A DNA stretch of 64,000 nucleotides, taken from the sequence record OL451225.1; one strand, written 5' to 3'. Origin of the DNA: Escherichia phage P896. This document shows positions 18,783-61,337 of this stretch, piece after piece (the stretch's first letter is position 1; each line of letters begins with the position of its first letter). Made by a program: the position numbers and the translations under genes. The notes under the pieces are model-generated. The model did not search any database, was not told the origin of the DNA, and saw only the letters and a program-made list of their open reading frames with translations.

Positions 18783-18815
18783 AAAAAGGGACCCTTGAGG
18801 TCCCTTTCTTGTTTT
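18783..18815. terminator. bidirectional intrinsic terminator between gene 23 and the convergent orphan gene
   Basis: GGGACCcttgaGGTCCC hairpin (18788-18804) flanked by A and T tracts. Confidence 0.65.
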
Positions 18816-19096
18816 CATACCATACCATTTAAATGAACTTCTACCCGGCGCTTGATGAGGTCTCTGAAGTTAACATTGTTTTCTTGAAGTTTCAACCAGT
18901 TACCATTTTTATCTTTAGTGTGAGTAGAATAATTACCATTCCACCAGAAATCAGTGTCATATGCTAAGTTTTCATATTTTTTAACTAGTTTGTTCAGAGC
19001 ATTACCATTAACACCATTCGGGTATTTGTTGACCAATGCAATAACTTCAATTTCCAATTTTTTAAAGGTGTTCAGAAGGAAAGTTGATTTGTTCAT
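18815..19096 (-). CDS. hypothetical early protein (orphan gene between 23 and 24)
   Basis: 93-aa ORF with GGAG RBS, preceded by an early-promoter cassette and followed by a terminator; no family recognised. Confidence 0.6.
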   Translation of the reverse strand: MNKSTFLLNTFKKLEIEVIALVNKYPNGVNGNALNKLVKKYENLAYDTDFWWNGNYSTHTKDKNGNWLKLQENNVNFRDLIKRRVEVHLNGMV

Positions 19097-19166
19097 TTTA
19101 AACTCCAGGTTTTGTTTGTTAACTCAGTATGGAATCATTATGTCTTATCTTAATCTGGTTGTAAAC
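19097..19166 (-). repeat. early promoter + 5'UTR cassette, family A copy 1
   Basis: -35 GTTTAC (19161-19166), 18-bp spacer, -10 CATAAT (19137-19142), conserved leader TTCCATACTGAGTTAAC...CTGGAG; near-identical copies at 44425-44495 and 60143-60213. Confidence 0.6.
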
Positions 19167-19172
19167 AACTTT

Positions 19173-19180
19173 TATAAATA
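19173..19180 (+). promoter_or_regulatory. late promoter TATAAATA for gene 24
   Basis: Exact TATAAATA 27 nt upstream of the gene 24 ATG. Confidence 0.6.
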
Positions 19181-19206: not shown

Positions 19207-20487
19207 ATGGCAAAGATTAACAAATTACTGCGCGAGTCAACTACCACTACCAGCAACTCCTTGGGCCGCCCGAATCTTGTTGCTTTGACCCGCGCTACAA
19301 CCAAATTGATTTACCGCGATATTATCGCTGAACAACGTACGAACCAGCCAGTTGCGGCTCTGTACGGTGTTAAATATCTTACCCCTGATAATGAATTCAG
19401 TTTCCAAACCGGTGCCGTTTATGGCGGTGAAGTTGGTTCTAAAGACCGTGAAACTATCCCGGAATTTACAACCCCAACTCAAGCCGTAGCTAAAGGTGGA
19501 TACATTAAATTCCAGAATATCGTTTATAAAGCTCTGGTTGATAATCCATTTGCATCGACTACCGAAACTGTATTATCCGATGTTCTGCAAGAAGGTCTTA
19601 TTGCATTAACTATTCGTTTGGTTCCTGATGCGGCGCACACCGAGAAATTTGAAGCCGGTGATGTTGAGATTAGTAATGCTGTATTCCAGGTCAACAAATG
19701 GAATGCTCCGGTTAAAACACGTAAATTGAAAACTGCATTAACTGTTGAGCTTGCTCAGGATATGGAAGCAAATGGTTTTAATGCTCCTGCTTTCTTGGAA
19801 GACTTGCTTGCCACTATTATGGCAGATGAAATTAACAAAGATGTTCTTCAGTCTCTTATTACCGTTTCCAAGCGTTATAAAGTAACTGGTGTTTCTGACA
19901 ATGGCGTCATCGATTTAACATATGATGCAGCTCCAGAAGGTGCACGTAAACTGTACGAACTGGTTTGCGAAATGAACTCCGAGATTCAGAAAACTACATC
20001 TTATTCCGGTACCTTTGTTGTTGCCTCTAGCCGTGTTGCTGCTATGTTGGCCGGTTCTGGTTGGCTGAAGCATAAACCTGAAGACGAACAATGGCTTCCT
20101 GAAACAGCGTACGGTTATTTGATTAATGGCCTCCCTGTATTCTGTGATGTTAACAGTCCATTGGATTATGTAACCGTTGGCGTTAAAGAAAATTACGGTG
20201 GAAACGAAGTCGTAGGCTCAATCTTCTATGCTCCTTATACCGAAGGTCTGGACTTAGATGATGAAGAGCATGTAGGCGCGTTTAAGGTCATTGTGGACCC
20301 TGACAGTTTGCAACCAGCTATCTCTCTGATGGTTCGTTATGCACTTTCAGCTAACCCGTACACCGTTGCTAAAGACGATAAAGAAGCTCGTATTATCGAT
20401 GCAACCAATATGGATTTAATGGCCGGTCAGAGCAATATGTCTTATCTGCTCGGTGTTAAACTTCCGCCAATCATTTATGAGGCGTAA
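19207..20487 (+). CDS. 24: capsid vertex protein gp24
   Basis: 426 aa; N-terminus MAKINKLLRESTTTTSNSLGRPNLVALTRATTKLIY recognised as T4 gp24-like. Confidence 0.9.
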   Translation: MAKINKLLRESTTTTSNSLGRPNLVALTRATTKLIYRDIIAEQRTNQPVAALYGVKYLTPDNEFSFQTGAVYGGEVGSKDRETIPEFTTPTQAVAKGGYIKFQNIVYKALVDNPFASTTETVLSDVLQEGLIALTIRLVPDAAHTEKFEAGDVEISNAVFQVNKWNAPVKTRKLKTALTVELAQDMEANGFNAPAFLEDLLATIMADEINKDVLQSLITVSKRYKVTGVSDNGVIDLTYDAAPEGARKLYELVCEMNSEIQKTTSYSGTFVVASSRVAAMLAGSGWLKHKPEDEQWLPETAYGYLINGLPVFCDVNSPLDYVTVGVKENYGGNEVVGSIFYAPYTEGLDLDDEEHVGAFKVIVDPDSLQPAISLMVRYALSANPYTVAKDDKEARIIDATNMDLMAGQSNMSYLLGVKLPPIIYEA

Positions 20488-21771
20488 ATGCAAAAGATTA
20501 ACGCACTAATTCACGAATCAACATTAACGGCGGCCAACCAGGTCGCCCGTCCTAATTTGCTTTCTTATACTCAGGCTACGAATAAACGAATTTTTAAAGC
20601 ACTCGTTGCTGAACAGAAAACTACCCAGCCTGTTGCGGCGCTGTATGGTGTTCGCGTTCTTAACCCAGATGATAAAATGACTTATCTTGGCGGAGCAACA
20701 TTTGCAGGCCAGATTGGTATGTTCGAGCGTAAGAATATTCCAGAATTTACGAACAAAGACGAAGCTTATGCAGTCGGCGATATGTTCCAGTTTGAAAGTG
20801 TTGTGTTCAAAGTTTTGGAAGCATCACCATTCGCCGGGACTCTCGAAACTGATTTGGGCGAAGTTATTTCTGAAGCCATTGCGGCTGGCCATATAAGAAT
20901 GATGTCAGATGCGGCTTTCACTGATAAATTTGAAAAAGGTCATCCTGAAATTGCTGAAGCTGGTTTTCGTATTGATAAATGGCAGACTGAAGTTAAATCC
21001 AGAAAGCTGAAAACTTCTTTAACTGTCGAGCTTGCTCAAGACCTGGAAGCGAACGGTTTCGATGCAACGGATTTCATTGATAATATTCTCGGTATCCAAA
21101 TGGCAGAGGAAATTAATAAGGATGTACTGCAATCCCTTATTACTGTCAGTTCTCGCTTCAAGGTGCAAGGTGTTTCTGAAAAAGGTGTATTGAATCTAAC
21201 TGACCCGAAATATGATAACGCTCAGGACCGTGCGCGAACCCTGTATTATTATATGTGTGAAATGAACTCCGCAGTTCAACGTCAGACTTCGTTTGCTGGT
21301 ACATATGCAGTCGCTTCTTCCCGGTGTGCAGCTATTTTAGCAGCTTCTGGCTGGGTTGAGAAAAAGGAAGACCAGGATGAATTAGCCTATGGCGTTCTGA
21401 AGAACGGTTTACCACTTTATGCAGATATGAATAGTCCATGTGATTATGTTATTGTTGGTGTAAATGCTGATATGGGTGAAGGTCAGACGGTCGCATCTTT
21501 GTATTATGCGCCTTATACGGAAGGACTTAGTGAAGTTGATGATGAGGGTGATACCTCGGTCGGGGAATTCAAGGTTATTGTTGACCCTGAAAGCTTGCAG
21601 CCTACTGTTGCGCTATTAGCTCGTTATGCATTGACAGCAAACCCTTATACGGTTGCGAAAGATGATAAAGAAGCTCGCATTATTGATGGTGCTGATATGG
21701 ATAAGATGGCCAACCAAAGCCAATTGAGTTCTTATCTTGGTGTTAAACTTCCACCACTGGAAAAAGAATAA
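20488..21771 (+). CDS. second gp24-like capsid vertex protein (tandem paralog)
   Basis: 427 aa; by eye roughly half identical to the preceding gp24 (shared TQPVAALYGV, SRKLKT, LTVELAQD, EINKDVLQSLITVS, ANPYTVAKDDKEARIID motifs). Confidence 0.85.
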   Translation: MQKINALIHESTLTAANQVARPNLLSYTQATNKRIFKALVAEQKTTQPVAALYGVRVLNPDDKMTYLGGATFAGQIGMFERKNIPEFTNKDEAYAVGDMFQFESVVFKVLEASPFAGTLETDLGEVISEAIAAGHIRMMSDAAFTDKFEKGHPEIAEAGFRIDKWQTEVKSRKLKTSLTVELAQDLEANGFDATDFIDNILGIQMAEEINKDVLQSLITVSSRFKVQGVSEKGVLNLTDPKYDNAQDRARTLYYYMCEMNSAVQRQTSFAGTYAVASSRCAAILAASGWVEKKEDQDELAYGVLKNGLPLYADMNSPCDYVIVGVNADMGEGQTVASLYYAPYTEGLSEVDDEGDTSVGEFKVIVDPESLQPTVALLARYALTANPYTVAKDDKEARIIDGADMDKMANQSQLSSYLGVKLPPLEKE

Positions 21772-35513: not shown

Positions 35514-35544
35514 TTTGTTTTCCTCATGTGCAATTGATATGAAC

Positions 35545-35574
35545 ATTGTATCGCACTTCCTTGTGCTTGTAAAC
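35545..35574 (-). promoter_or_regulatory. early promoter
   Basis: Minus strand GTTTAC, 18 bp, TACAAT. Confidence 0.5.
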
Positions 35575-35576
35575 CC

Positions 35577-37637
35577 CTACGAAAGGAATTTAGGAGGAAT
35601 AGCTTCCAAATTAATACAACTAGCAAGAATACCAAGACCTTGATTGACTTTCTTCGTTACCCCAGAGGATGCAAACGATGCAAAGTCAACAGATTCTGCT
35701 GGCTCTTCTGTTTCCTCGCCCTGATAAACGACAAGCTCACCAGTTTCCATCAACACATCACCATCATAGATAACTGCATTTTCATCCAGTTGGTCCGTAG
35801 TCTGGATATCAGCTTCCAGCATTTTGACGTTCGCGTTTCCTTGATACGAAGCATCAGTAATTTTGGTAATCTTAACTACAGTCCCACGAGGAAGAATAAC
35901 TTCCTGCTCGGACGGGTTGCTTGACAATTCCCCAGGAACAATTACGTTAATTAAGTCCGCCCCAGAAATTTTCCAACCAACATGCATCATTACGTGGTCG
36001 CGGCGTGCATCCGGCATATCTGGTAAAACAATTTCGTCATCAGCCTGGAAAGATGTCCCATCACGATAGTCCTGATGAACTGCAGCCATAGCAACGTTCG
36101 CCACCCAGCCACCAAAGATAATCGGTTTAAACGACGTTGATACATAGTTCCTGAAATAAAATAATTTAGATTTCTTAATTTTATCAAATGTAGGAACGTT
36201 TAAATATTGACCACGCCAAAGAGTTGTATTAGGCGGCAACTTATGTCCAATTTCAAAGGCCGAATCCAATTCCTTAATTGTTTCGACAACTCTGTCTAGA
36301 TTTAGGAATTCAGCTTCTTCTTCATAATATTTGCCCATCAAATAATTATTAATATCGGCATAGTTTGCTCCACAATAATCTGCAATTGCTTCTCGCTGGC
36401 CATAATGGAAACGGTTGTCAGTATACCCTGCTGTGAAATTAAGAGTATTTTCTGATGCTTCTTCGGCAAAGTCTTTAACTGCAACACGAATGGCGCTTGT
36501 GTATTCTTTTTCCCAGAGCGAGGCTGCATAAGTGGCTGCATCCAGGTTAGGAGGAGCATCATTCATTTTTCTTTCGATAAATGCGGCTTTGCGAAGGTTA
36601 AGAATCTCTGCGCATGATTCGGCAAAAATCTGCATCTGCTTCATACTACCAACCGGAGCACGTTTAAGTTCACGATGCATACGGTTAAAAATTGGGTCAG
36701 AGTCTTCAACACGAATTTCTTCTTTCCAAACACCATTTGCTCGCATAGCCTCATCTGCTGCACGCATACGAGCCATAGTATTCGTTTCAGAAGGTCGAAC
36801 AAAAATTTCCAGTTCTTCATAATCATCGATAAGTTCTGCCGTAGCCGGTCGACTAAACTTAGCAGCTTCTGCATCAATTTCGTCCCAACCGTCTGGTACG
36901 GAATCACTTGGAGCGTACTGGGCTTGTGCAATAGCTCGGCGACTGATTTTAGTTTTCTGGGCAACAGCAGCATCGGTCTTTTTGTTTGCTGCGTCAATCA
37001 GAACTTCGGCTGCGATTTCTTGTTTGGAGACTTGTGCGCCTGTATCTTTATTAGTGAATACATCGCCGACTTTAGTTTCAACTTTTTGATATTTCTCAGG
37101 GACCGGTGGCATACCATCAACCGAAAGCAGGTCAACACCCTTTTTGTACATAATTACATAAGCGTTCTTTTTACCGAGGCCGGAAGCATTCGGAAGAACA
37201 TGATAACGCCCGCTGGTTTTCATTTGAATCAGTCGATTCATAATACGAATAACAGCTTGGTCTTGTCCTTTCATCTTTTTGGATGGGAAACGGAACAAGA
37301 CTACATCAGGTTTGCCTAGTTTAATGCTTTCCCAGACTGTAACAAAAATCAGGTTAATCGCATCAAGAGGTTTTTCACCTAGACCACCCTTCAGAGGAAT
37401 AGCATGGCCATGTGAAGTCCCGGATAACAGGAATACCTCGGCAATTGCATCGCCACGTTTATATTGTTTAACTGTTTCTTTGCCCGTGAATTGCATCAAA
37501 CGGGCCATAAGAGAATTGGTCCCAGGAACACCGAATTGCCAAACCTGCGGGACCTTGTATTTTGGATTCATATTAATGACAGGATAACCGAAGGCTTCGA
37601 TATATTTGTCAAAGAGTTCATTTAATTGTTCAGACAT
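35577..37637 (-). CDS. alt: Alt-family ADP-ribosyltransferase (internal head protein), copy 1
   Basis: 686 aa; N-terminal LNE|LF motif of the prohead-protease type; C-terminal ART signature ...YVSTSFKPIIFGG...EQEVILPRGT. Confidence 0.85.
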   Translation of the reverse strand: MSEQLNELFDKYIEAFGYPVINMNPKYKVPQVWQFGVPGTNSLMARLMQFTGKETVKQYKRGDAIAEVFLLSGTSHGHAIPLKGGLGEKPLDAINLIFVTVWESIKLGKPDVVLFRFPSKKMKGQDQAVIRIMNRLIQMKTSGRYHVLPNASGLGKKNAYVIMYKKGVDLLSVDGMPPVPEKYQKVETKVGDVFTNKDTGAQVSKQEIAAEVLIDAANKKTDAAVAQKTKISRRAIAQAQYAPSDSVPDGWDEIDAEAAKFSRPATAELIDDYEELEIFVRPSETNTMARMRAADEAMRANGVWKEEIRVEDSDPIFNRMHRELKRAPVGSMKQMQIFAESCAEILNLRKAAFIERKMNDAPPNLDAATYAASLWEKEYTSAIRVAVKDFAEEASENTLNFTAGYTDNRFHYGQREAIADYCGANYADINNYLMGKYYEEEAEFLNLDRVVETIKELDSAFEIGHKLPPNTTLWRGQYLNVPTFDKIKKSKLFYFRNYVSTSFKPIIFGGWVANVAMAAVHQDYRDGTSFQADDEIVLPDMPDARRDHVMMHVGWKISGADLINVIVPGELSSNPSEQEVILPRGTVVKITKITDASYQGNANVKMLEADIQTTDQLDENAVIYDGDVLMETGELVVYQGEETEEPAESVDFASFASSGVTKKVNQGLGILASCINLEAIPPKFLS

Positions 37638-37646
37638 TTTTAACCC

Positions 37647-39521
37647 TTAATTGAGAAGGTGTACAAGTTTTTCCATAGACAAATCATAAGAGATTCTGTC
37701 ATATTTTTTCAAAAGCGAATTTGATTCGTCTATCTGGTCATTTTCTAAGATAGAGCATTCAACGAGAATGTATTTACCCATCGAACCCATCATGCCAGCT
37801 GTAGCACCATAGACTTTATCAATCTTAAGCATTGTTCCACGTGGAAGAATAACTTCGGTTTCAACGGACCAGTTTGCCAGGTCACCAGGAATAACTACCT
37901 TGATATTTTCTGCACCTTTGATAATCATACCAATCTTGATTGTAGGTTTCGCCGAACCAGTTGCACTTTTAATAGTTGCATCGATTGCCCCATCATCGAT
38001 ATCACTCGATAATGCATTTGGGTCAAGGTTCGCAGCGGTGTGGCCCATACGACCGAAAATATTTGGCGCCAGAGATGTACTCGCAAACATAGGAAGATAC
38101 ATCGTTTTATTTTTGATGGAATTAATTGCCATATCGGTTGGCATGACTTGAGCACGGTAGATGATAGTTCCTTTTGGAAGCTTAACACCGTTTTCAAATA
38201 CTTTATCCATATCGGAAATCATTTTGATTTCGCTTTCTTTTGCGTCAGCTTTCCCTAGCAGGAAATTATTGATTGCAGTATATTTTCCGCGAGTATATGC
38301 CTTAATTGCTTCGGCCTGGTCTTCAGTTATTTCAGGGTTGTCGGAGATATGAAATAATGGTTGGATGGCCTTGGTGTAAATTTCATCTGCGATAATACGA
38401 ATAGCTTCTTTAGTCTTATCTTCGCGCGCCCAGGTCCCCACAATGGAGTCGTCAAGCAACATATCAGCAACTCTGCGCAATGTATCAACAGGATTCTTTG
38501 AGGCCCGCAGGACGTTCGAAAACTCACTTATTTTGTGTTCCATGCCAACTTCTTTAAGAGCATTAAACACATCCATGGCTACACGAGTTTTTGTCTTATC
38601 TTCACCAACACCACCTTGTGCAACTAAATCAAAATAGTCTGCATACTCATCACCCGCACGGTCGATTACTTTTATTGAAGCTTTAGCTATCTGACTTTCT
38701 CTGGCATCATCTGCTGAATGCACTGCGCTACTGGTCGAGAGTTTTGTATAAATCTCTTTGTGCTCTGGTGAGAATTTAGCAAGGCCAGTTGGTTCGTTCC
38801 CCGAATACAATGCGTTAATAGCTGCGCGTTTAGAAAACTTGGTTTTAACAACAACTGCCTGGTCTGTACGTTTTTCTTCAACCTTTGCAATAGAGGCCGC
38901 AATAGCTTCATTCTTGGTAACAGTTTCGCCGGTGGCTTTGTCTACATAAACATCACCGACTTTCGATTCCACTTTTGTGTACAATTCGGTATTGATGCCA
39001 GGAATTCCGGCGATAGATTCAATTGGTTTGGATTTACGATAAATCAATACGTAAGTATGTTTACCCGTGTACTGATACATATCATCCAGAACTTTGAACT
39101 GACCGCCGGCACGGGCCATAATAAGCCGAGCAAGAACACGCTGAATAGTTCGTTCTTGTCCCTTCATTTTGCGGGTCGGGAAGCGGAACATAATTGCATC
39201 CATTTTCATCAGTTTTACTTGTTCGTAAACTACATCAAAAATGGATTTAATTGCTCCAATCGGGTTATCACCAAGACCACCTTTAAGAATAGCTGGAGTA
39301 CCGTTTGAATTTAATGACATCAAAATAACGTGTGCATACTTATCGCCAGTTTTGACCTGTTTAATAGCATCGCCTTCGGATGCGTAAGACACCATACGAG
39401 CAATAAGATTATCATTCCCCGGGACCTGGATATTCCAAATCTGTGGAACTTTTGACTTTGAAAGGTTAATGGCCGGGATATTAGATTCCCCTTCAAAAAC
39501 CTCTGACAATAATTCGGTCAT
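37647..39521 (-). CDS. Alt-family ADP-ribosyltransferase, copy 2 (tandem paralog)
   Basis: 624 aa; shares the N-terminal region with copy 1 (KVPQIW..., LKGGLG, RFP.KKMKGQ, TKVESKVGDV); ART signature ...FASTSLAPNIFG...ETEVILPRGT. Confidence 0.85.
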   Translation of the reverse strand: MTELLSEVFEGESNIPAINLSKSKVPQIWNIQVPGNDNLIARMVSYASEGDAIKQVKTGDKYAHVILMSLNSNGTPAILKGGLGDNPIGAIKSIFDVVYEQVKLMKMDAIMFRFPTRKMKGQERTIQRVLARLIMARAGGQFKVLDDMYQYTGKHTYVLIYRKSKPIESIAGIPGINTELYTKVESKVGDVYVDKATGETVTKNEAIAASIAKVEEKRTDQAVVVKTKFSKRAAINALYSGNEPTGLAKFSPEHKEIYTKLSTSSAVHSADDARESQIAKASIKVIDRAGDEYADYFDLVAQGGVGEDKTKTRVAMDVFNALKEVGMEHKISEFSNVLRASKNPVDTLRRVADMLLDDSIVGTWAREDKTKEAIRIIADEIYTKAIQPLFHISDNPEITEDQAEAIKAYTRGKYTAINNFLLGKADAKESEIKMISDMDKVFENGVKLPKGTIIYRAQVMPTDMAINSIKNKTMYLPMFASTSLAPNIFGRMGHTAANLDPNALSSDIDDGAIDATIKSATGSAKPTIKIGMIIKGAENIKVVIPGDLANWSVETEVILPRGTMLKIDKVYGATAGMMGSMGKYILVECSILENDQIDESNSLLKKYDRISYDLSMEKLVHLLN

Positions 39522-39546
39522 ATTGTTTTCCTTATAAAATATGATG

Positions 39547-42217: not shown

Positions 42218-42699
42218 AATGCATCTCTCAATTGGTTAAGTATGTCAATAAATTCTTGTTCAGTCAATATTGTATCATGAACAGTAAGGTGACTCGCCAT
42301 CGAATGCTTTAAAACTTTGCCCTTTGTAGCTTGTAATGCGTCGCGGAATCCTTTGTTTTGGAGCGCTGCTTCAAAATAAGCATTTGTATACAACTCTTTC
42401 CATGATGTAGAGTATCTTGAAAAGGGAATTCCAAGCCAGAAAAGCGTCCCACGGTCCGCAGCTCTCGCATAAGCTCTTCCACTTTGCTGGGCGGCCAGGC
42501 CGGACATCCCAAATATACGTTTTTGTTGTTCATGATTTCTCACCTTACACCCTTGCAGGAAGCCTTCAAGACCTCCAAACTGGATGCCCTCCATAACAAA
42601 AGGCCATTTAGCAAAGTTACTTAATGCACATGATGGCCATGGGAAATTGCTTCTGATTTCTAACTCAGACATCTTTGACACTGATAATCTTGGTTGCAT
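42214..42699 (-). CDS. NADAR / YbiA-like (DUF1768) domain protein
   Basis: 161-aa ORF (start may be at MSELEIR, 42672); ...SNFAKWPF...EGFLQGCK... matches the YbiA pattern xSNFAxWP...EHYFQAQKF. Confidence 0.65.
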   Translation of the reverse strand: MQPRLSVSKMSELEIRSNFPWPSCALSNFAKWPFVMEGIQFGGLEGFLQGCKVRNHEQQKRIFGMSGLAAQQSGRAYARAADRGTLFWLGIPFSRYSTSWKELYTNAYFEAALQNKGFRDALQATKGKVLKHSMASHLTVHDTILTEQEFIDILNQLRDAL

Positions 42700-42877
42700 A
42701 CCACATACCGTGGTCCGGTAATCTGGATTTAATTGACCGCCCGCGATATGTTTTTCGCATTACAACAGTCTTAATAGCATCTTCATCACAAGCATATGGA
42801 GGTGATAAATCAATAACACGATAAGTAACTTCAACCATTTCCAAGCCAAACAGCTTTTTAAATAATTTCTTAATCAT
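42665..42877 (-). CDS. small hypothetical protein, tandem paralog A
   Basis: 70 aa; ...EMVEVTYRV.D.SP...IISVKD shared with the neighbouring ORF. Confidence 0.6.
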   Translation of the reverse strand: MIKKLFKKLFGLEMVEVTYRVIDLSPPYACDEDAIKTVVMRKTYRGRSIKSRLPDHGMWYATKIISVKDV

Positions 42878-42886
42878 GAAGGTTCC

Positions 42887-43099
42887 TTAAATATCTTTGA
42901 CGCTGATAATATATACATCAGCCCAATGACCATAACCAGGTAGACGGTCTTTAATAGATAATCCACCGTCAGATTTCAGCATTTTAATTGTTTTAGTATA
43001 TGGTTCAATATTTCGGGCCCATGGACTCACGTCAGTTACGCGATAAGTAACTTCAACCATTTCTGTTCCCAAAATTTTCTGAATCAGTTTCTTAAACAT
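42887..43099 (-). CDS. small hypothetical protein, tandem paralog B
   Basis: 70 aa; paralogous to 42665-42877. Confidence 0.6.
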   Translation of the reverse strand: MFKKLIQKILGTEMVEVTYRVTDVSPWARNIEPYTKTIKMLKSDGGLSIKDRLPGYGHWADVYIISVKDI

Positions 43100-43618: not shown

Positions 43619-43984
43619 TTAGATATCAAATTCATTAAGAACTACATCAAAGATTGCTTCCAGGTGTTCAGGTTTTGCTTTGTTACCCAGGATATGACGA
43701 ATCCAAGTTTTAACCAACAGCTTGCGATTAACACCATTCCAACAAGGATGAGTACCTAAATCACGCTCGCGGAAATCATCATCTAAAGCAATTTTAAAGG
43801 TTGAACCAGTCATAGTGATTGAAAGAGTGATACCATTTTCAAATCGCATATAAACGTAGTTAGGAGTCATATACTGTTCAATTTCGCACACTGAACCATT
43901 TTTATGTTTCCACAGGCAAATAACTTCAGAAGAACCTGGGATGCAGTTAGAAACATATTTGCGTTCAAAGTTGATGTAGTTCAT
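43619..43984 (-). CDS. hypothetical protein
   Basis: 121-aa ORF with RBS. Confidence 0.6.
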   Translation of the reverse strand: MNYINFERKYVSNCIPGSSEVICLWKHKNGSVCEIEQYMTPNYVYMRFENGITLSITMTGSTFKIALDDDFRERDLGTHPCWNGVNRKLLVKTWIRHILGNKAKPEHLEAIFDVVLNEFDI

Positions 43985-44055
43985 TTTATTCTCCAGTTGT
44001 TTTCATTTGTTGGTACAGGTCTATAATATCATAACCTGTACCAAAGTAAACTGTT

Positions 44056-44424
44056 TTATGCGACTTTAATCCAATTATCTAAATTTAATTCACCCTTAGC
44101 TTTCATTTTTTCAATCAAATCATCAGCAGTAGTGCGACCATTTTGATACCATGTAACATCTTCAGAATAACCAGTTTCTTCATCTTCATAGGTCTTACAG
44201 CGAATCTTACCAAGAATCAAAGTTTTCAGTTCGTAGGTATCACCAGTAAAAAAGTTTGTTACCATAATTTTCCAGGAGAAGTCATCAGAAGGACCTTCTG
44301 GAGTCATGCAAGAAACGAATTCAAATTGTTCTTTATACAAGTGCCATTGCATTTCTTTAGTTTCAATGGCTTTGTAACCGTCGTGGTCTTTACCTTTGAT
44401 GTATGAGTTAAGATTGATTTTCAT
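44056..44424 (-). CDS. hypothetical early protein
   Basis: 122-aa ORF directly downstream of a family A promoter cassette; GGAG RBS. Confidence 0.6.
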   Translation of the reverse strand: MKINLNSYIKGKDHDGYKAIETKEMQWHLYKEQFEFVSCMTPEGPSDDFSWKIMVTNFFTGDTYELKTLILGKIRCKTYEDEETGYSEDVTWYQNGRTTADDLIEKMKAKGELNLDNWIKVA

Positions 44425-44495
44425 TTTATTCTCCAGTGTTTTATTGTGTAACTCAGTATGGAATCATTATGCACTGGACCAACCCTGTTGTAAAC
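44425..44495 (-). repeat. early promoter + 5'UTR cassette, family A copy 2
   Basis: GTTTAC (44490-44495), 18 bp, CATAAT (44466-44471), leader TTCCATACTGAGTTACACAATAAAACACTGGAGAATAAA-ATG. Confidence 0.6.
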
Positions 44496-44516
44496 CCCTT
44501 TATGGAAAATAAAAAA

Positions 44517-44534
44517 GGGACTCCGAAGAGTCCC
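44517..44534 (-). terminator. intrinsic terminator after the 53-aa gene
   Basis: GGGACTCcgaaGAGTCCC hairpin followed on the minus strand by TTTTTTATTTTCC. Confidence 0.6.
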
Positions 44535-44539
44535 TGAAC

Positions 44540-48038: not shown

Positions 48039-48098
48039 TTTGTTTTCCTCATGTGTTGATGAAATTCATTATACACCATCCGTGGTGAAAGTAAACAC

Positions 48099-48666: not shown

Positions 48667-48868
48667 AATGTTCTTCCAAGAAGGCTAAGAGTTCTGGAGC
48701 GGATTTAAAGATACCGCCATCAACCTTGTCTTCACTATCATAATCCATTACATCCAGGCCAATACGTCCATCAGTTAAAGGCCATACGCCGAAGAAAAAG
48801 CATTTACGTTTTTCAATTTCTTCGATTGTACGAAAAATCTTTTCGATATTATTCATAGGGGTTTCCAT
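48659..48868 (-). CDS. hypothetical protein
   Basis: 69-aa ORF. Confidence 0.55.
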   Translation of the reverse strand: METPMNNIEKIFRTIEEIEKRKCFFFGVWPLTDGRIGLDVMDYDSEDKVDGGIFKSAPELLAFLEEHYV

Positions 48869-49572
48869 TTTCTACCTAGTTGCCAATCGGGGTGGCTCAA
48901 TCTAGGGTCATTTTCATCGGTGGTAGAAGATTTCTTGCCTGAAATATGGATAAGCCATTTTCTAGACTTAGCTACTCTTGAATAATTGGCTTTTGCCTCA
49001 TCTGAACGAATCTTACCTTTGTTCGATTCAGATATTTTATTGCCCCATTCAATAATAGCTTCTTCACTCATAAAATCTTTTACATTTTTACCGTACACTG
49101 GATTATTTTCGCCTTTAAATGAATTACCATTTTTAAGGCGGCTTTTTTTGGATTTAAGCCCACTACCAGGCAATCTCTTGCCTTTATTCCATGGTATAAC
49201 ACCGTTTTTGTATCTTTGCTTTTGTGATTCTGAAATTTTTAACGAAGTTTCGGGACTCGAGTTAACATTAATACGATTTTCATTAATGTACTCCCAACCT
49301 CCTTCTCCACCGGGCTTCAAATTGTAATTAGTATCCAATTTTATAAATTCTTTAGTTACTAATTCGGCTTCTAAATCATATGCTTCTTGTTTAGTTTCAA
49401 ATATTTTTATGATTTCTTTAATAAAAGAATCTTTACCATATTTTGATTCAGCATTTTTAAAAGCTGTACCGGAACCTAAATAAGAATCGTTTTCTTCCAA
49501 GGTCTTATGAACCCCTATATAAATTTTATTATTAACCAAACATGTAGTTTTATATACAGTATATTTTTCCAT
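48853..49572 (-). CDS. Seg-like GIY-YIG homing endonuclease
   Basis: Start MEKYTVYKTTCLVNNKIYIGVHKT (GIY-YIG motif) with GGAGGTGA RBS; C-terminal repeats resembling NUMOD3 (IPWNKGK, NPVYGKN, EWGNKISESNKGK). Confidence 0.8.
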   Translation of the reverse strand: MEKYTVYKTTCLVNNKIYIGVHKTLEENDSYLGSGTAFKNAESKYGKDSFIKEIIKIFETKQEAYDLEAELVTKEFIKLDTNYNLKPGGEGGWEYINENRINVNSSPETSLKISESQKQRYKNGVIPWNKGKRLPGSGLKSKKSRLKNGNSFKGENNPVYGKNVKDFMSEEAIIEWGNKISESNKGKIRSDEAKANYSRVAKSRKWLIHISGKKSSTTDENDPRLSHPDWQLGRKWKPL

Positions 49573-49581
49573 TAGAATCAC

Positions 49582-49611
49582 CTCCATAGATATTTATACT
49601 TATCTATGGAG
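49582..49611 (-). promoter_or_regulatory. hairpin sequestering the seg RBS, with late promoter in the loop
   Basis: Perfect 11-bp stem CTCCATAGATA/TATCTATGGAG; minus-strand TATAAATA (49591-49598) spans loop and 3' arm; the 3' arm contains the GGAGG RBS. Confidence 0.6.
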
Positions 49612-50838: not shown

Positions 50839-50842
<4 letters not shown>

Positions 50843-51321
50843 ACACCAAGCTCCTTATAAAGTTCTTCGCGACAGGTTTTAAGGATTTTACCAGTTTCAT
50901 AAGCTGCACTTTCAGAAACATCACCAAGTGCAGCGGCAGATTGCATTTGTCCATGGCGTTTAGCTGCATATTCAAAACTTTTCACCAATTCACGAATACG
51001 TTCTTTTTCATTGTACTCTTCAATGAATTCAGGGTATTCCCAAACAGGTCGCATCATACGATACCAATGCTGAATAGTAATATAATTACTTCCATCCAGA
51101 TTAATAATTTGCGAAGGCTTAATAGACCCTGGGGCATAAAAAGTTACCTGTCTTACTACATCAATACCGTCCACCATAGCCCAAGCAAAATCGAAAGTTG
51201 CCTTCTTTTCAATTGGTGTGCTTGCACAGGACCCTAATTTTAAGAGCTTTTGTAATACAGGAGATTTAACACCTGAAATGTATTCAGGATTAGCTACAAA
51301 AGAATTGTCACGTAAAGTCAT
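50839..51321 (-). CDS. hypothetical protein
   Basis: Start at MTLRDNSF with GAGGA RBS (track ORF extends upstream through the promoter region); 160 aa. Confidence 0.6.
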
Positions 51322-51357
51322 AGTCATTTCCTCAAATATTTTATAATCCGTAGGAGC

Positions 51358-51387
51358 ATTATACTCTGCTCCCATGAGTTTGTACAC
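51358..51387 (-). promoter_or_regulatory. early promoter
   Basis: Minus strand GTGTAC, 18 bp, TATAAT. Confidence 0.5.
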
Positions 51388-52638: not shown

Positions 52639-52872
52639 TTAGTAGCGGTTGTAACCTCTAGGACCAAAAGAGTTGGCACCCAGGCGTTCATCTTTCTTTT
52701 TGGCTCTTGCTCTAAACCCAGAATCACCTGTTTGAGCTTTCAGTTCTTTTAACAATTTGGCCTTCAGGTCAGTAATGAAACCAATCCGGCGGTCTCCCTT
52801 GTAGACATAGATTCCGTCATTACTGTCACCATATGCCTGTGTAACTCTTTCATTTGTAATTAAGTTTAACAT
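52639..52872 (-). CDS. small protein paralogous to the Alc N-terminal region
   Basis: 77 aa MLNLITNERVTQAYGDSNDGIYVYKGDRRIGFITDLKAKL...; GAGGA RBS and its own early promoter. Confidence 0.65.
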   Translation of the reverse strand: MLNLITNERVTQAYGDSNDGIYVYKGDRRIGFITDLKAKLLKELKAQTGDSGFRARAKKKDERLGANSFGPRGYNRY

Positions 52873-52933
52873 GTTTTAGTCCTCATCAGTAGTTGATGGA
52901 ACCATTATGTATAGAAAGAAGGGGCTTGTACAC
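52873..52933 (-). repeat. early promoter + 5'UTR cassette, family B copy 1
   Basis: GTGTAC (52928-52933), 18 bp, CATAAT (52904-52909), leader GGTTCCATCAACTACTGATGAGGA; the -35 overlaps a GGGGcttgtacaCCCC hairpin. Confidence 0.55.
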
Positions 52934-52942
52934 CCCTTTTTA

Positions 52943-54079
52943 TTATTCAGGAAGGATTACTTCCGCTTGGTAGTCCGACGGAATGTAAAGTTTATGATTT
53001 TTAAGGAAAACTTTATTGATTTGAGCAATCGTTTGTTCGGTTTCCTGGGGGCGTTGATAGGTGTTCATTAATACGGAGAACAATCCCGGGTACGGTTTAC
53101 ACAACTCTTGACCTTTAATCGCAAACTCGCGACGGTCTTTTCCTGCCAGTTGTTTCTGGGCGTCAAGCAACAATCCCAGCGTATTGGACAGATAATCCAG
53201 ATGTACAATGGTAAAGGCATTAACTTTTTCGCGAGCATAATCATCACCAGTAAACATGGCAATAACATCATCAGCCCCGCCGGCAACAACAACTTCAAAC
53301 AAACGCTCATTATTATTAATGGAGTCTTTAGTATGGTGCAGAGCACAATACCATTCTGTTTTCAGCTTGAACTTCTGACCACTTGCCAGCTCGTAGACGA
53401 AGCCTTCAATCTCTTTCATACCACGAACATTCTCAATGCTCACCAGGTCATATGCTTCAACCAGGAAAGGACGGAGTGCAGCATCTTTGAACAGTTCCTG
53501 GTATGGGATATATTCGCCAGTTTCATTATGACGAACGTTCAGTAAAATCAGGTCACGTTCCTGGTAAGGCAAAACAATGCGGTTGGTTGGTGCAACATAT
53601 TCCATATTGCATGCATAACCAGCTTCAGTGATTTCAGTCACACGAGCCCTGAACGCTTCACGGTGCGGTTGTTTAAACACCTGCAGAGATTCAGCAGCTT
53701 GGGAACTTTTAATCGACCCTTTGGATTTAAAAGCAATATTAGTCTGGTCCATATAAGTAGAAACCAAGCTACCATCAGCTTTTGCAGTAACCAGGACAAC
53801 TTCATCAAGGTTAAGGTCCATGGTCATTGGGTTCTCACCCAGATTAAAGAATTTTTCCATAGGACGGGCAGCAATGCGAACTGGACCATTGTCATCCATT
53901 TCAAACATAATGCCGCGGCACTCCAGTGCGTCATCAAGAAGCCAATCACTATAGGAAGCATAGTTATAGCTAAAGATGCGGAACTTAGTTTCAAATGGAG
54001 AAACAAAATCCGTATAGAAAAACTTACCTTTATCGGATTCGGCGCAAAGCTTCATTAAGTTATCATATAATTCAATCAT
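52943..54079 (-). CDS. rnlA: RNA ligase 1 (RnlA)
   Basis: 378 aa; ...FRIFSYNYASYSDWLLDDALECRGIMFEMD...; adenylylation motif KADGSL. Confidence 0.9.
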   Translation of the reverse strand: MIELYDNLMKLCAESDKGKFFYTDFVSPFETKFRIFSYNYASYSDWLLDDALECRGIMFEMDDNGPVRIAARPMEKFFNLGENPMTMDLNLDEVVLVTAKADGSLVSTYMDQTNIAFKSKGSIKSSQAAESLQVFKQPHREAFRARVTEITEAGYACNMEYVAPTNRIVLPYQERDLILLNVRHNETGEYIPYQELFKDAALRPFLVEAYDLVSIENVRGMKEIEGFVYELASGQKFKLKTEWYCALHHTKDSINNNERLFEVVVAGGADDVIAMFTGDDYAREKVNAFTIVHLDYLSNTLGLLLDAQKQLAGKDRREFAIKGQELCKPYPGLFSVLMNTYQRPQETEQTIAQINKVFLKNHKLYIPSDYQAEVILPE

Positions 54080-59902: not shown

Positions 59903-60142
59903 TCACGCTTTCTTAGCAACTTTCCAGTCAGCTTTAAATTGGTCAACGTCAGAGTGATGAATCCAGAAACCAGATGAGCTACCATCTTCATAAAGAGGAC
60001 AACCATCACACTCATCTTTCCAACCCATCGCGCATAAAGTTTCTTCAGCTTTTTCCAGAGCTTCTGGATTGTTACCCTGGATTGTGAAGTACCATTTGCC
60101 TTTAACTTCTGAATCTTTGATGCTCTCACGTTGTAATTTCAT
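59903..60142 (-). CDS. hypothetical early protein
   Basis: 79-aa ORF downstream of family A cassette copy 3; GGAG RBS. Confidence 0.6.
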   Translation of the reverse strand: MKLQRESIKDSEVKGKWYFTIQGNNPEALEKAEETLCAMGWKDECDGCPLYEDGSSSGFWIHHSDVDQFKADWKVAKKA

Positions 60143-60213
60143 TTTATTCTCCAGGGTTTTAGTTGTTAACTCAGTATGGGACCATTATGTCATAGCCCCA
60201 TTTGGTTGTACAC
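60143..60213 (-). repeat. early promoter + 5'UTR cassette, family A copy 3
   Basis: GTGTAC (60208-60213), 18 bp, CATAAT (60184-60189), leader GTCCCATACTGAGTTAACAACTAAAACCCTGGAGAATAAA-ATG. Confidence 0.6.
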
Positions 60214-60475: not shown

Positions 60476-60843
60476 TTAGACCCCAAAAGTTGCTTTAATC
60501 AGGGCAATAACTTCCGCGGCATTTTTATGATTTACCTGCACATGAATGGTTTGGGTATCAACATCAGGAGCATCGCCATCAACTTCCAGGAAGTGACAGA
60601 ATTCCCATTCAGCGAGTTCAAAGTACTCATCAACATCACCCATACTATTCAGGATGGTGCCATCTTTCATTTCAACTTTTTCAACAAAATAATCACCTTC
60701 AATATAACACATATCCAGGACTTTGAAGGAATTGCCATGCTGTTCCATTAACTTGACCATGCACGAATTATCATCAGGACTACCAGCGATGAATTGTTTT
60801 TTAGCAGCAGGGTCTAATACGTAAAATTTACCAGTTTCCATCA
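60476..60843 (-). CDS. hypothetical protein (paralog family with 60907-61269 and 47496-48038)
   Basis: Start at METGKFYVLDPAAKKQFIAG with GAGGA RBS; DEYFELAEWEF motif shared with the neighbour. Confidence 0.6.
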
Positions 60844-60903
60844 TTTTAATTTCCTCATGTAGTTGATGGGTCCATAATAACATAATCATAGACCCGTTGT
60901 AAA
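60844..60903 (-). repeat. early promoter + 5'UTR cassette, family B copy 2 (diverged)
   Basis: GTTTAC (60898-60903), about 19 bp, TATTAT, leader GGACCCATCAACTACATGAGGAAATTAAA-ATG. Confidence 0.45.
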
Positions 60904-61269: not shown

Positions 61270-61337
61270 TTTTATTTCCTCAGTTGTTATCAGTAGTTGA
61301 TGGAATCATTATGCCTTAGCTCAAAGGACTTGTACAC
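61270..61337 (-). repeat. early promoter + 5'UTR cassette, family B copy 3
   Basis: GTGTAC (61332-61337), 18 bp, CATAAT (61308-61313), leader GATTCCATCAACTACTGATAACAACTGAGGAAATAAAA-ATG. Confidence 0.55.

Follow-up and report, generated by a model that had tools for sequence, protein, structure and literature searches.

Three genes on the minus strand of a 64,000-nucleotide stretch of the Escherichia phage P896 genome (OL451225.1) are each preceded by a similar unit of roughly 70 bp. We refer to the whole stretch as the window (positions 1–64,000, the numbering used here for all copies, genes and coordinates) and to the units as A1, A2 and A3, copies 1, 2 and 3 of an A-type cassette. Each copy is likely a strong T4-type early promoter, used by sigma-70 RNA polymerase and coupled to a leader that is short and standardised, and the likeness among the copies was likely kept by selection and not produced by recent duplication. 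The original prediction had located three such minus-strand units upstream of three ATGs, and all three are present where it placed them (Table 1).

Promoter, leader and translation start of the three copies

The three copies have one layout. In each, a −35 and a −10 hexamer spaced by 17 nt match the sigma-70 consensus at 9–10 of 12 positions. The original prediction described the −35 element as G(T/G)TTAC; the variants actually present are GTTTAC and GTGTAC, whereas its 18-bp spacer holds if the −35 is counted in the same way. The A box, with the general form G(A/G)T(T/C)CCATACTGAGTTA, directly follows the −10 hexamer. It is succeeded by an A/C-rich stretch and by CTGGAG(AA/TT)TAAAATG, in which the Shine–Dalgarno (SD) sequence GGAG precedes the ATG by 7 nt in A1, A2 and A3. 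Upstream of the −35, the three copies have the A/T-rich stretches tatttataaaagtt, ttttttattttccataaagg and gataaaatttaaaaagtag, and the stretch of A3 contains the TAA of the upstream open reading frame (ORF). Judged from the alignment and from the family consensus in phage SP18, A1–A3 possess the features of T4-type early promoters, namely a GTTTAC-like sequence at −36 to −31 and A-rich positions −40 to −44. They also have a C-rich segment at −3 to −1 and a TATAAT-like −10 in which position −11 is A and position −7 is T.

The unusual likeness among A1–A3 is limited to the transcribed part. Over 83 nt the ungapped identity is 64–76%. Their leaders are 83–90% identical, compared to a mean of 59% (maximum 76%) with the leaders of the seven other early-type promoters that a regular-expression scan found on the minus strand of the window. 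In contrast, the spacers between −35 and −10 are 47–65% identical versus 51% for generic pairs of early promoters, and the AT-rich parts upstream 52–71% versus 57%. The description of the copies as near-identical thus holds for the leader, but not for the spacers and upstream parts, which are no more alike than those of generic early promoters. Since the box and the translation start are conserved and the spacer is not, the pattern points to selection on function rather than recent duplication.

A repeat search of the window recovered the A-type family independently (repeat family D3). The 15-mer CCATACTGAGTTAAC is found exactly at two of the three copy sites and with 2 mismatches at the third. 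If up to 3 mismatches are allowed, it has 8 matches in the window where 1.34 are expected, and none of 100 shuffles reached 8. The remaining fuzzy matches (2–3 mismatches) coincide with no early-promoter-like site, and no further A-type copies were found in the window.

Counted from the likely start, the leader of A1–A3 is 34–35 nt long and consists of three modules: the invariant box, which runs from the discriminator to about +13 (GRTYCC-AUACUGAGUUA), a variable A/C-rich spacer, and the translation start CUGGAGAAUAAAAUG. Early promoters of T4-like phages have the consensus GTTTAC at −36 to −31 and C at −3 to −1 (PMC1524935). Because of this published preference for C, the transcription start is most likely the A of CCAT. 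The published logos of early promoters consulted here end at the start site (PMC1524935), and additional regions of consensus have been described for the early promoters of T4 (PMC2988021).

The predicted minimum free energy of the leaders is 0 to −1 kcal/mol, which makes them less structured than 198–200 of 200 dinucleotide shuffles. In these models, the leader looks selected to remain open. A stem-loop within the conserved leader is ruled out by the same folds. A consensus scan also picks up a possible tandem sigma-70 promoter concealed in the leader, TTAACA and, after 16–17 nt, TAAAAT overlapping the ATG, with 10/12 matches in A1 and A3 and 9/12 in A2. Such a promoter is very improbable, however, as its start would fall in the ORF, downstream of the ATG, and the distance from GTTAMC to TAAAATG varies widely across the family, the leaders of which differ greatly in length.

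The SD sequence is also a candidate target of the phage endoribonuclease RegB. The 11-nt target of RegB and ribosomal protein S1 has the consensus GGAGRAYARAA with GGAGAAUAAAA as optimum (PMC1702504, PMC3014915). Cleavage in the SD (GG*AGRAYARAA) inactivates early mRNAs, and RNase G has been reported to cut certain RegB-processed early transcripts in their 5′ regions (PMC3014915). A2 and A3 carry the exact optimum, GGAGAATAAAA, and their sites are predicted to be single-stranded, given leader folds of 0 to −1 kcal/mol. In the window there are three exact GGAGRAYARAA sites (at 30.7, 30.8 and frd.1) versus 0.31 expected, all at early translation starts. In SP18 there are 12 versus 1.2 expected; all 12 lie at early-strand translation starts, a short way downstream of early promoters, and 8 belong to A leaders. 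The T4 orthologs of 30.8, 30.7 and frd.1 have an identical GGAGAATAAAATG, and therefore the translation-start module is old and travels with the genes. The gene regB is annotated in SP18 (SP18gp116).

Combining these elements, host sigma-70 RNA polymerase would read the promoter by means of an A/T-rich, UP-like stretch, T(T/G)TACA, 17 nt and CATAAT. The downstream gene would be strongly transcribed right after infection and, via the open leader, efficiently translated. The SD would double as the 11-nt optimal target of RegB acting with S1, and a RegB cut at this position would silence the gene within minutes. As a by-product, the common box and the associated stem-loops could provide short patches of homology for recombination. 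Recombination at such patches would occasionally gain or lose modules of a promoter plus an ORF, as in the shuffling described for promoter-early stem-loop (PeSL) cassettes.

Two versions of the start-region box in related phages

The phage of the window is a T4-like Gaprivervirus, with CJ20, PSD2001, SP18 and the VR7/VR20 group as its nearest records. As a proxy we assembled the complete genome of SP18, which aligns to the window block by block at 86–99.7% identity. Among the early promoters of SP18, 13 have an A-type block and 13 a B-type block (ATCAACTAC), which gives about 13 A-type alongside about 13 B-type cassettes per Gaprivervirus genome. The window has no A-type copy beyond the three of the original prediction, but the family extends further. 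In SP18, the block from about −6 to +13 carries more information than any other segment in both classes, the −35 included, and the spacer is essentially uninformative. The B-type start motif in the window, CCATCAACTAC, is common to several of the seven other early promoters.

The orthologs of A1–A3 in SP18 and CJ20 retain their locus-specific spacers. Therefore, the paralogs predate the divergence of the window phage, SP18 and CJ20. The examples at orthologous loci in Dhakavirus and Mosigvirus use B-like start regions (..TATCAAC..), among them the promoters that QL01 (Dhakavirus) and PhAPEC2 (Mosigvirus) have in the slot between genes 23 and 24. At these loci T4 is without either box. Morganella phage MP1 (Gualtarvirus, outside the Tevenvirinae) has at least six early cassettes with an identical A-type block. 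One of these precedes a homolog of Frd.1 that shares 49% amino-acid identity with the window protein, and the first 26 bases of its leader (CCCATACTGAGTTAACAA.TAAAAC) differ from those in the window at one position only. By comparison of these cassettes, the box is conserved between Gaprivervirus, with E. coli and Shigella as hosts, and Gualtarvirus, with Morganella as host. An exact-pattern scan of IMG/VR for a wide environmental spread of the A box gave only 14 stretches, with few further contigs.

An alternative explanation might be that the box is functionless and is kept identical by frequent gene conversion (concerted evolution) through the very active T4-type recombination system; recombination in T4 requires less than 50 bp of homology (PMC2839356). 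Exchange between cassettes is shown by a chimera involving SP18 and VR20, and the A3 leader of CJ20 has in its middle part a replacement by a variant found in other A leaders. Yet, all 13 copies in SP18 have identical sharp boundaries with an unrelated spacer directly upstream, and without selection conversion tracts would not all stop at one base. Moreover, an identical box is found in another genus and host (MP1), beside a protein that is only 49% identical. The identity across genera, the sharp common boundaries and the unrelated spacers therefore argue for selection on the block over plain gene conversion, which we regard as unlikely.

What the box does can be read at two levels. We prefer a role at the level of DNA and RNA polymerase, in which it would affect the choice of the start site or promoter escape, because its invariance begins upstream of +1. 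The main alternative, to which we assign a modest probability, is that the box acts in RNA, as a 5′-terminal tag of early mRNAs for the ribosome or S1, for RNase E/G or for a phage RNA-binding protein. In that case, two differently handled classes of mRNA would be marked by the A box and the B box. In line with this, the two versions are discrete and mutually exclusive (13 + 13 in SP18) and resemble class labels, the leaders seem selected to be unstructured, and RNase G acts on the 5′ regions of some RegB-processed transcripts (PMC3014915). Conversely, the invariance begins at −6 and is continuous across +1, which is a better fit to a DNA element, and there was no match to an Rfam family at the gathering score anywhere in the window.

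In the preferred interpretation at the DNA level as well as in the RNA alternative, the box from −6 to +13 with its mutually exclusive versions A (CCATACTGAGTTA) and B (ATCAACTAC) could be an undescribed functional element of T4-like early units, an idea that we put forward tentatively. Such an element, whether a signal in the start region or a tag at the mRNA 5′ end, could divide the early genes into two control classes. If so, the classes might differ in promoter escape, in the timing of shut-off or in how the mRNA is handled. It is the invariant two-version box in the start region, common to a Morganella phage, that is modestly new; cassettes of this kind are already known.

Table 1. Positions of the A-type copies, their parts and neighbouring features in the window
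Feature	Position	Strand	Remark
A1, A-type cassette copy 1	19097–19166	minus	ends directly upstream of ATG at 19096
A2, A-type cassette copy 2	44425–44495	minus	ends directly upstream of ATG at 44424
A3, A-type cassette copy 3	60143–60213	minus	ends directly upstream of ATG at 60142
−35 of A1, TTTACA	19160–19165	minus
−35 of A2, TTTACA	44489–44494	minus
−35 of A3, TGTACA	60207–60212	minus
−10, CATAAT	A1 19137–19142; A2 44466–44471; A3 60184–60189	minus
A box GATTCCATACTGAGTTA	A1 19120–19136; A2 44449–44465	minus
A box GGTCCCATACTGAGTTA	A3 60167–60183	minus
Exact RegB/S1 optimum GGAGAATAAAA	A2 44424–44434; A3 60142–60152	minus	then TG
SD/RegB-like sequence GGAGTTTAAAA of A1	19096–19106	minus	9/11 match to consensus
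Intrinsic-terminator stem-loop AGGGACTCttcgGAGTCCCT + T run	44516–44535	minus	21 nt upstream of A2 −35
Imperfect inverted repeat ATGGGGCTAT / ATGGTCCCAT	60176–60201	minus	encloses most of A3 −10
93-aa ORF (phrog_6003; SP18gp189 / JS98 gp173 homolog)	18815–19096	minus	lone early gene between late genes 23 and 24
Bidirectional terminator hairpin	18783–18809		ends gene 23 (plus) and 93-aa ORF (minus)
Gene 30.8 (PF06019, Phage_30_8)	44056–44424	minus	conserved across T4-like phages
Gene frd.1 (DUF5417, PF17438)	59903–60142	minus	heads frd.1-frd-td stretch; 72% identical to T4 Frd.1
Early promoter of gene 30.7 with translation start CTGGAGAATAAAATG	43984–44050	minus	RegB optimum at 43984–43994
B-type cassettes, start (C/T)(C/T)ATCAACTAC	52870–52932; 60845–60903; 61298–61336	minus	mostly GAGGA-type SD
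Weaker B-type variants	near 48040–48095 and 35515–35573	minus

Age of the downstream genes and recombination at the cassettes

The proteins encoded downstream of A1–A3 are unrelated, as the original prediction had stated, and belong to three separate families (phrog_6003, PF06019 and PF17438, respectively). The same prediction took their genes for likely recently acquired cargo, and here our results differ. For gp30.8 there are homologs in 1035 phage records, among them T4, PST, CC31 and phages of Klebsiella and Aeromonas, and for Frd.1 in 1419 records; both proteins are conserved to T4. The 93-aa ORF has homologs in 236 records, one copy per genome, and follows the phylogeny of the genera, with identities of 92–100% in Gaprivervirus, about 62% in Dhakavirus and about 35% in Mosigvirus. 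It occupies the one slot between genes 23 and 24 also in the one Dhakavirus (QL01) and the one Mosigvirus (PhAPEC2) record examined. All three genes are in the same places in SP18 and CJ20. Conservation in place among relatives had been named as the finding that would speak against recent acquisition, and the comparison largely gave this result. Judged by these comparisons, the three downstream genes are old, conserved residents and not recent arrivals.

The surroundings of the copies offer some ground for the view that a single mobile PeSL cassette was recently copied to give the three units, each of which marks a recently acquired accessory gene. A2 (in the rIII-30 stretch) and A3 (in the 32-frd stretch) sit where relatives differ in gene content, in so-called hyperplastic stretches, and PeSL-type shuffling does occur in the lineage. 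A1 sits inside the block of head genes, in a slot that varies between genera. At this longer range, the A1 slot of T4 holds the homing endonuclease gene segD behind an early promoter, back-to-back with the late promoter of gene 24, and in Dhakavirus dhaeg the promoter is kept while leader and ORF are lost. Of the three copies, A1 comes closest to the picture of a promoter slot that has taken up an accessory gene, although this gene is not recent. Recent copying is nevertheless quite unlikely, since the spacers and upstream parts are generic in likeness and kept by the orthologs, the paralogs predate the diversification of Gaprivervirus, and the conservation and placement of the three genes indicate long residence.

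Two further observations concern the loci of A1 and A3. The late promoter of gene 24 in the window, TATAAATA (plus strand, 19173–19180), lies 7 nt from the A1 −35 (minus strand, 19160–19165), back-to-back with it. Gene 24 (head vertex) itself is present as two tandem paralogs on the plus strand (19207–20487 and 20488–21771) with a shared repeat of 73% identity over 198 nt; two copies are also present in CJ20 and one in SP18. At the A3 position, T4 has no promoter: between frd.2 and frd.1 (44006–44143 of the T4 locus), a small hydrophobic ORF (MFAPYIMAAVMLVCLYLLIKAC) lies at the promoter site. T4 retains the GGAGAATAAAATG translation start for frd.1.

Although the genes behind A1–A3 appear to be old, the cassette family flanks gains and losses of genes in relatives, in agreement with the original prediction. 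VR20 and VR25 have an extra 98-aa ORF with a promoter, and SP18 and VR26 are without both. The SP18 cassette before a 147-aa ORF is chimeric: left of the box it matches the VR20 cassette of the 98-aa ORF, and on the right side there is identity with the cassette that precedes VR20's own 147-aa ORF. From the two halves of this chimera, it follows that a crossover took place inside the A-type box, within the roughly 20 bases that are shared. In CJ20, a frd.3-like ORF lies between two B-type cassettes, where the window has the single hybrid cassette at 60842–60903 with its junction in the ATGAGGAAA SD region. By its sequence, the difference between CJ20 and the window at this site is a PeSL-type deletion or insertion. 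These comparisons identify the cassette family as a recombination site in the lineage.

At A1–A3 themselves, the only indel between close relatives is that of gene 30.6A beside A2 in SP18. This gene, with its own terminator, is inserted just 3′ of the T run of the A2 hairpin, before the A2 −35. Elsewhere, the window has an extra 162-aa ORF without a Pfam match (50839–51327, minus strand), exactly at the point where, in SP18, the leader of the corresponding promoter (at 51386 in the window) is followed by its gene.

The remaining differences among these genomes are mostly insertions of homing endonucleases or gains of paralogs. A 244-aa GIY-YIG/NUMOD3 seg-like homing endonuclease is encoded between cd.4 and pseT (48853–49587, minus strand); at this spot a different endonuclease is encoded on the plus strand of SP18, and none in CJ20. 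A segment of about 200 nt (42688–42893) is absent from SP18 and includes a 75%-identical copy of an adjoining 68-nt segment (42810–42877 / 43032–43099); duplication of a small gene within the 30.3–30.5 stretch is the probable origin. A 1.9-kb segment (37637–39528) is present in SP18, not in CJ20, and corresponds to a second paralog of alt (ADP-ribosyltransferase).

Several points weigh against our interpretation of the A-type copies as early units kept alike by selection. The family counts were taken from SP18 rather than from the window's own genome, and a single crossover inside the A box is documented. The invariant 13-nt block exceeds what promoter escape usually needs, so that the grounds for a DNA-level role of the box are weak. 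Both the start site and the shut-off by RegB are carried over from work on T4 and RB49. The gene regB lies outside the window, and its presence is assumed from relatives that are 93–99% identical. Finally, the A1 sequence GGAGUUUAAAA departs from the RegB consensus at positions 5 and 6, and A1 may be a poor RegB substrate.

If our interpretation of selected early units is right, promoter, box and RegB-type translation start together form a precise annotation signature for the immediate-early genes of Gaprivervirus-type phages, a group with many members in therapeutic use. Such a signature would also predict which early genes are switched off by RegB. A more general implication is that a shared regulatory cassette alone is no marker of recent cargo; here, selection on the regulatory sequence would explain the likeness. 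The box, if functional, would add an element to the well-studied early promoter of T4, and might be relevant to how early transcription is abruptly shut off, which is still unexplained.

Comparison with PeSLs and other early promoters

In a PeSL, an AT-rich region and a strong early promoter of the sigma-70-like kind are combined with a stable stem-loop and with the SD and ATG of the next gene (PMC2839356, PMC4122927). [quoted passage not shown] Clusters of PeSLs are found in hyperplastic regions, and the cassettes recombine with one another (PMC2839356, PMC4122927). The original assignment of A1–A3 to PeSL-type cassettes is partly supported, by the architecture of promoter, SD and ATG and by the exchange of modules within the family. 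Yet, no stem-loop was found at A1 (fold z +0.6 and +0.2), nor is there one in the leader.

Stem-loops are associated with the other two copies. The intrinsic-terminator hairpin upstream of A2 is GC-rich with 8 bp (z −2.8) and fits the PeSL definition of a stem-loop. The repeat around the A3 −10 has 10 pairs, including 2 G-U. As RNA its fold is −15.4 kcal/mol (z −1.97), with 7 of 200 shuffles as good; as DNA it is not significant (z −0.01). Going by these folds, the A3 hairpin could form solely in read-through RNA or in single-stranded DNA. In SP18, the −10 is flanked by a perfect inverted repeat of at least 7 nt at 11 of 37 early promoters, compared to 1.6% of random positions; the arm sequences vary, each pairing with its own partner. 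Such repeats were considered as a novel feature and rejected, as they are already described as the PeSL class overlapping the −10 box (PMC2839356).

Two other early promoters of the window have comparable structures. The promoter of gene 30.7 (43995–44050, minus strand) has the translation-start module of the A copies, but a different start region. Around its −10 is a long perfect inverted repeat (core GGTACAGG/CCTGTACC; DNA fold z −2.7) of the class overlapping the −10, and the 30.7 promoter of T4 has identical core arms GGTACAGG/CCTGTACC. The promoter at 52932 (minus strand, 52915–52945) has the hairpin GGGG-tgtacaag-CCCC with the −35 in its loop, followed by a T-rich run (DNA fold z −2.9). 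This hairpin is a composite of terminator and promoter, of the G(n)-loop-C(n) PeSL type.

With the PeSLs of RB49/phi1, PST/T4 and nt-1/KVP40 (Arbiol 2010; Comeau 2014), the A-type cassettes share the AT-rich region, the early promoter, the SD and the ATG. They also resemble them in the stem-loops that some have upstream of the promoter or around its −35 or −10, in their multiple copies that are mostly in hyperplastic stretches, and in the recombination between neighbours that adds or removes ORFs, observed here in relatives. In contrast to PeSLs, the A-type subfamily is defined by its transcribed start region and leader, which are outside the PeSL definition. Furthermore, A1 lacks a stem-loop and is located between the structural genes 23 and 24, and the sole mapped A-type crossover lies in the leader box, not in a stem-loop.

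The early promoters of T4 (UP/−35/TGn/−10) have the same GTTTAC-type −35, A-rich UP element, TATAAT-like −10, C-rich segment at −3 to −1 and start at A. They drive immediate-early genes, and T4 has early-type promoters at the corresponding places of 30.8, 30.7 and the 23/24 slot. However, an invariant box at +1 to +13 was absent from the four T4 regions examined (segD, 30.7, 30.8 and alt.-3). As with the RegB/S1 sites of T4, A2 and A3 have the exact optimum as SD, predicted to be single-stranded, on early transcripts, whereas A1 deviates at two positions.

In very strong coliphage promoters such as T5 N25 and T7 A1, the region from +1 to about +20 affects promoter clearance and strength, and short conserved motifs are found there. 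The initial regions of these promoters are loosely conserved. The A-type start region differs from them in that 13 nt are invariant and that it comes in two discrete versions.

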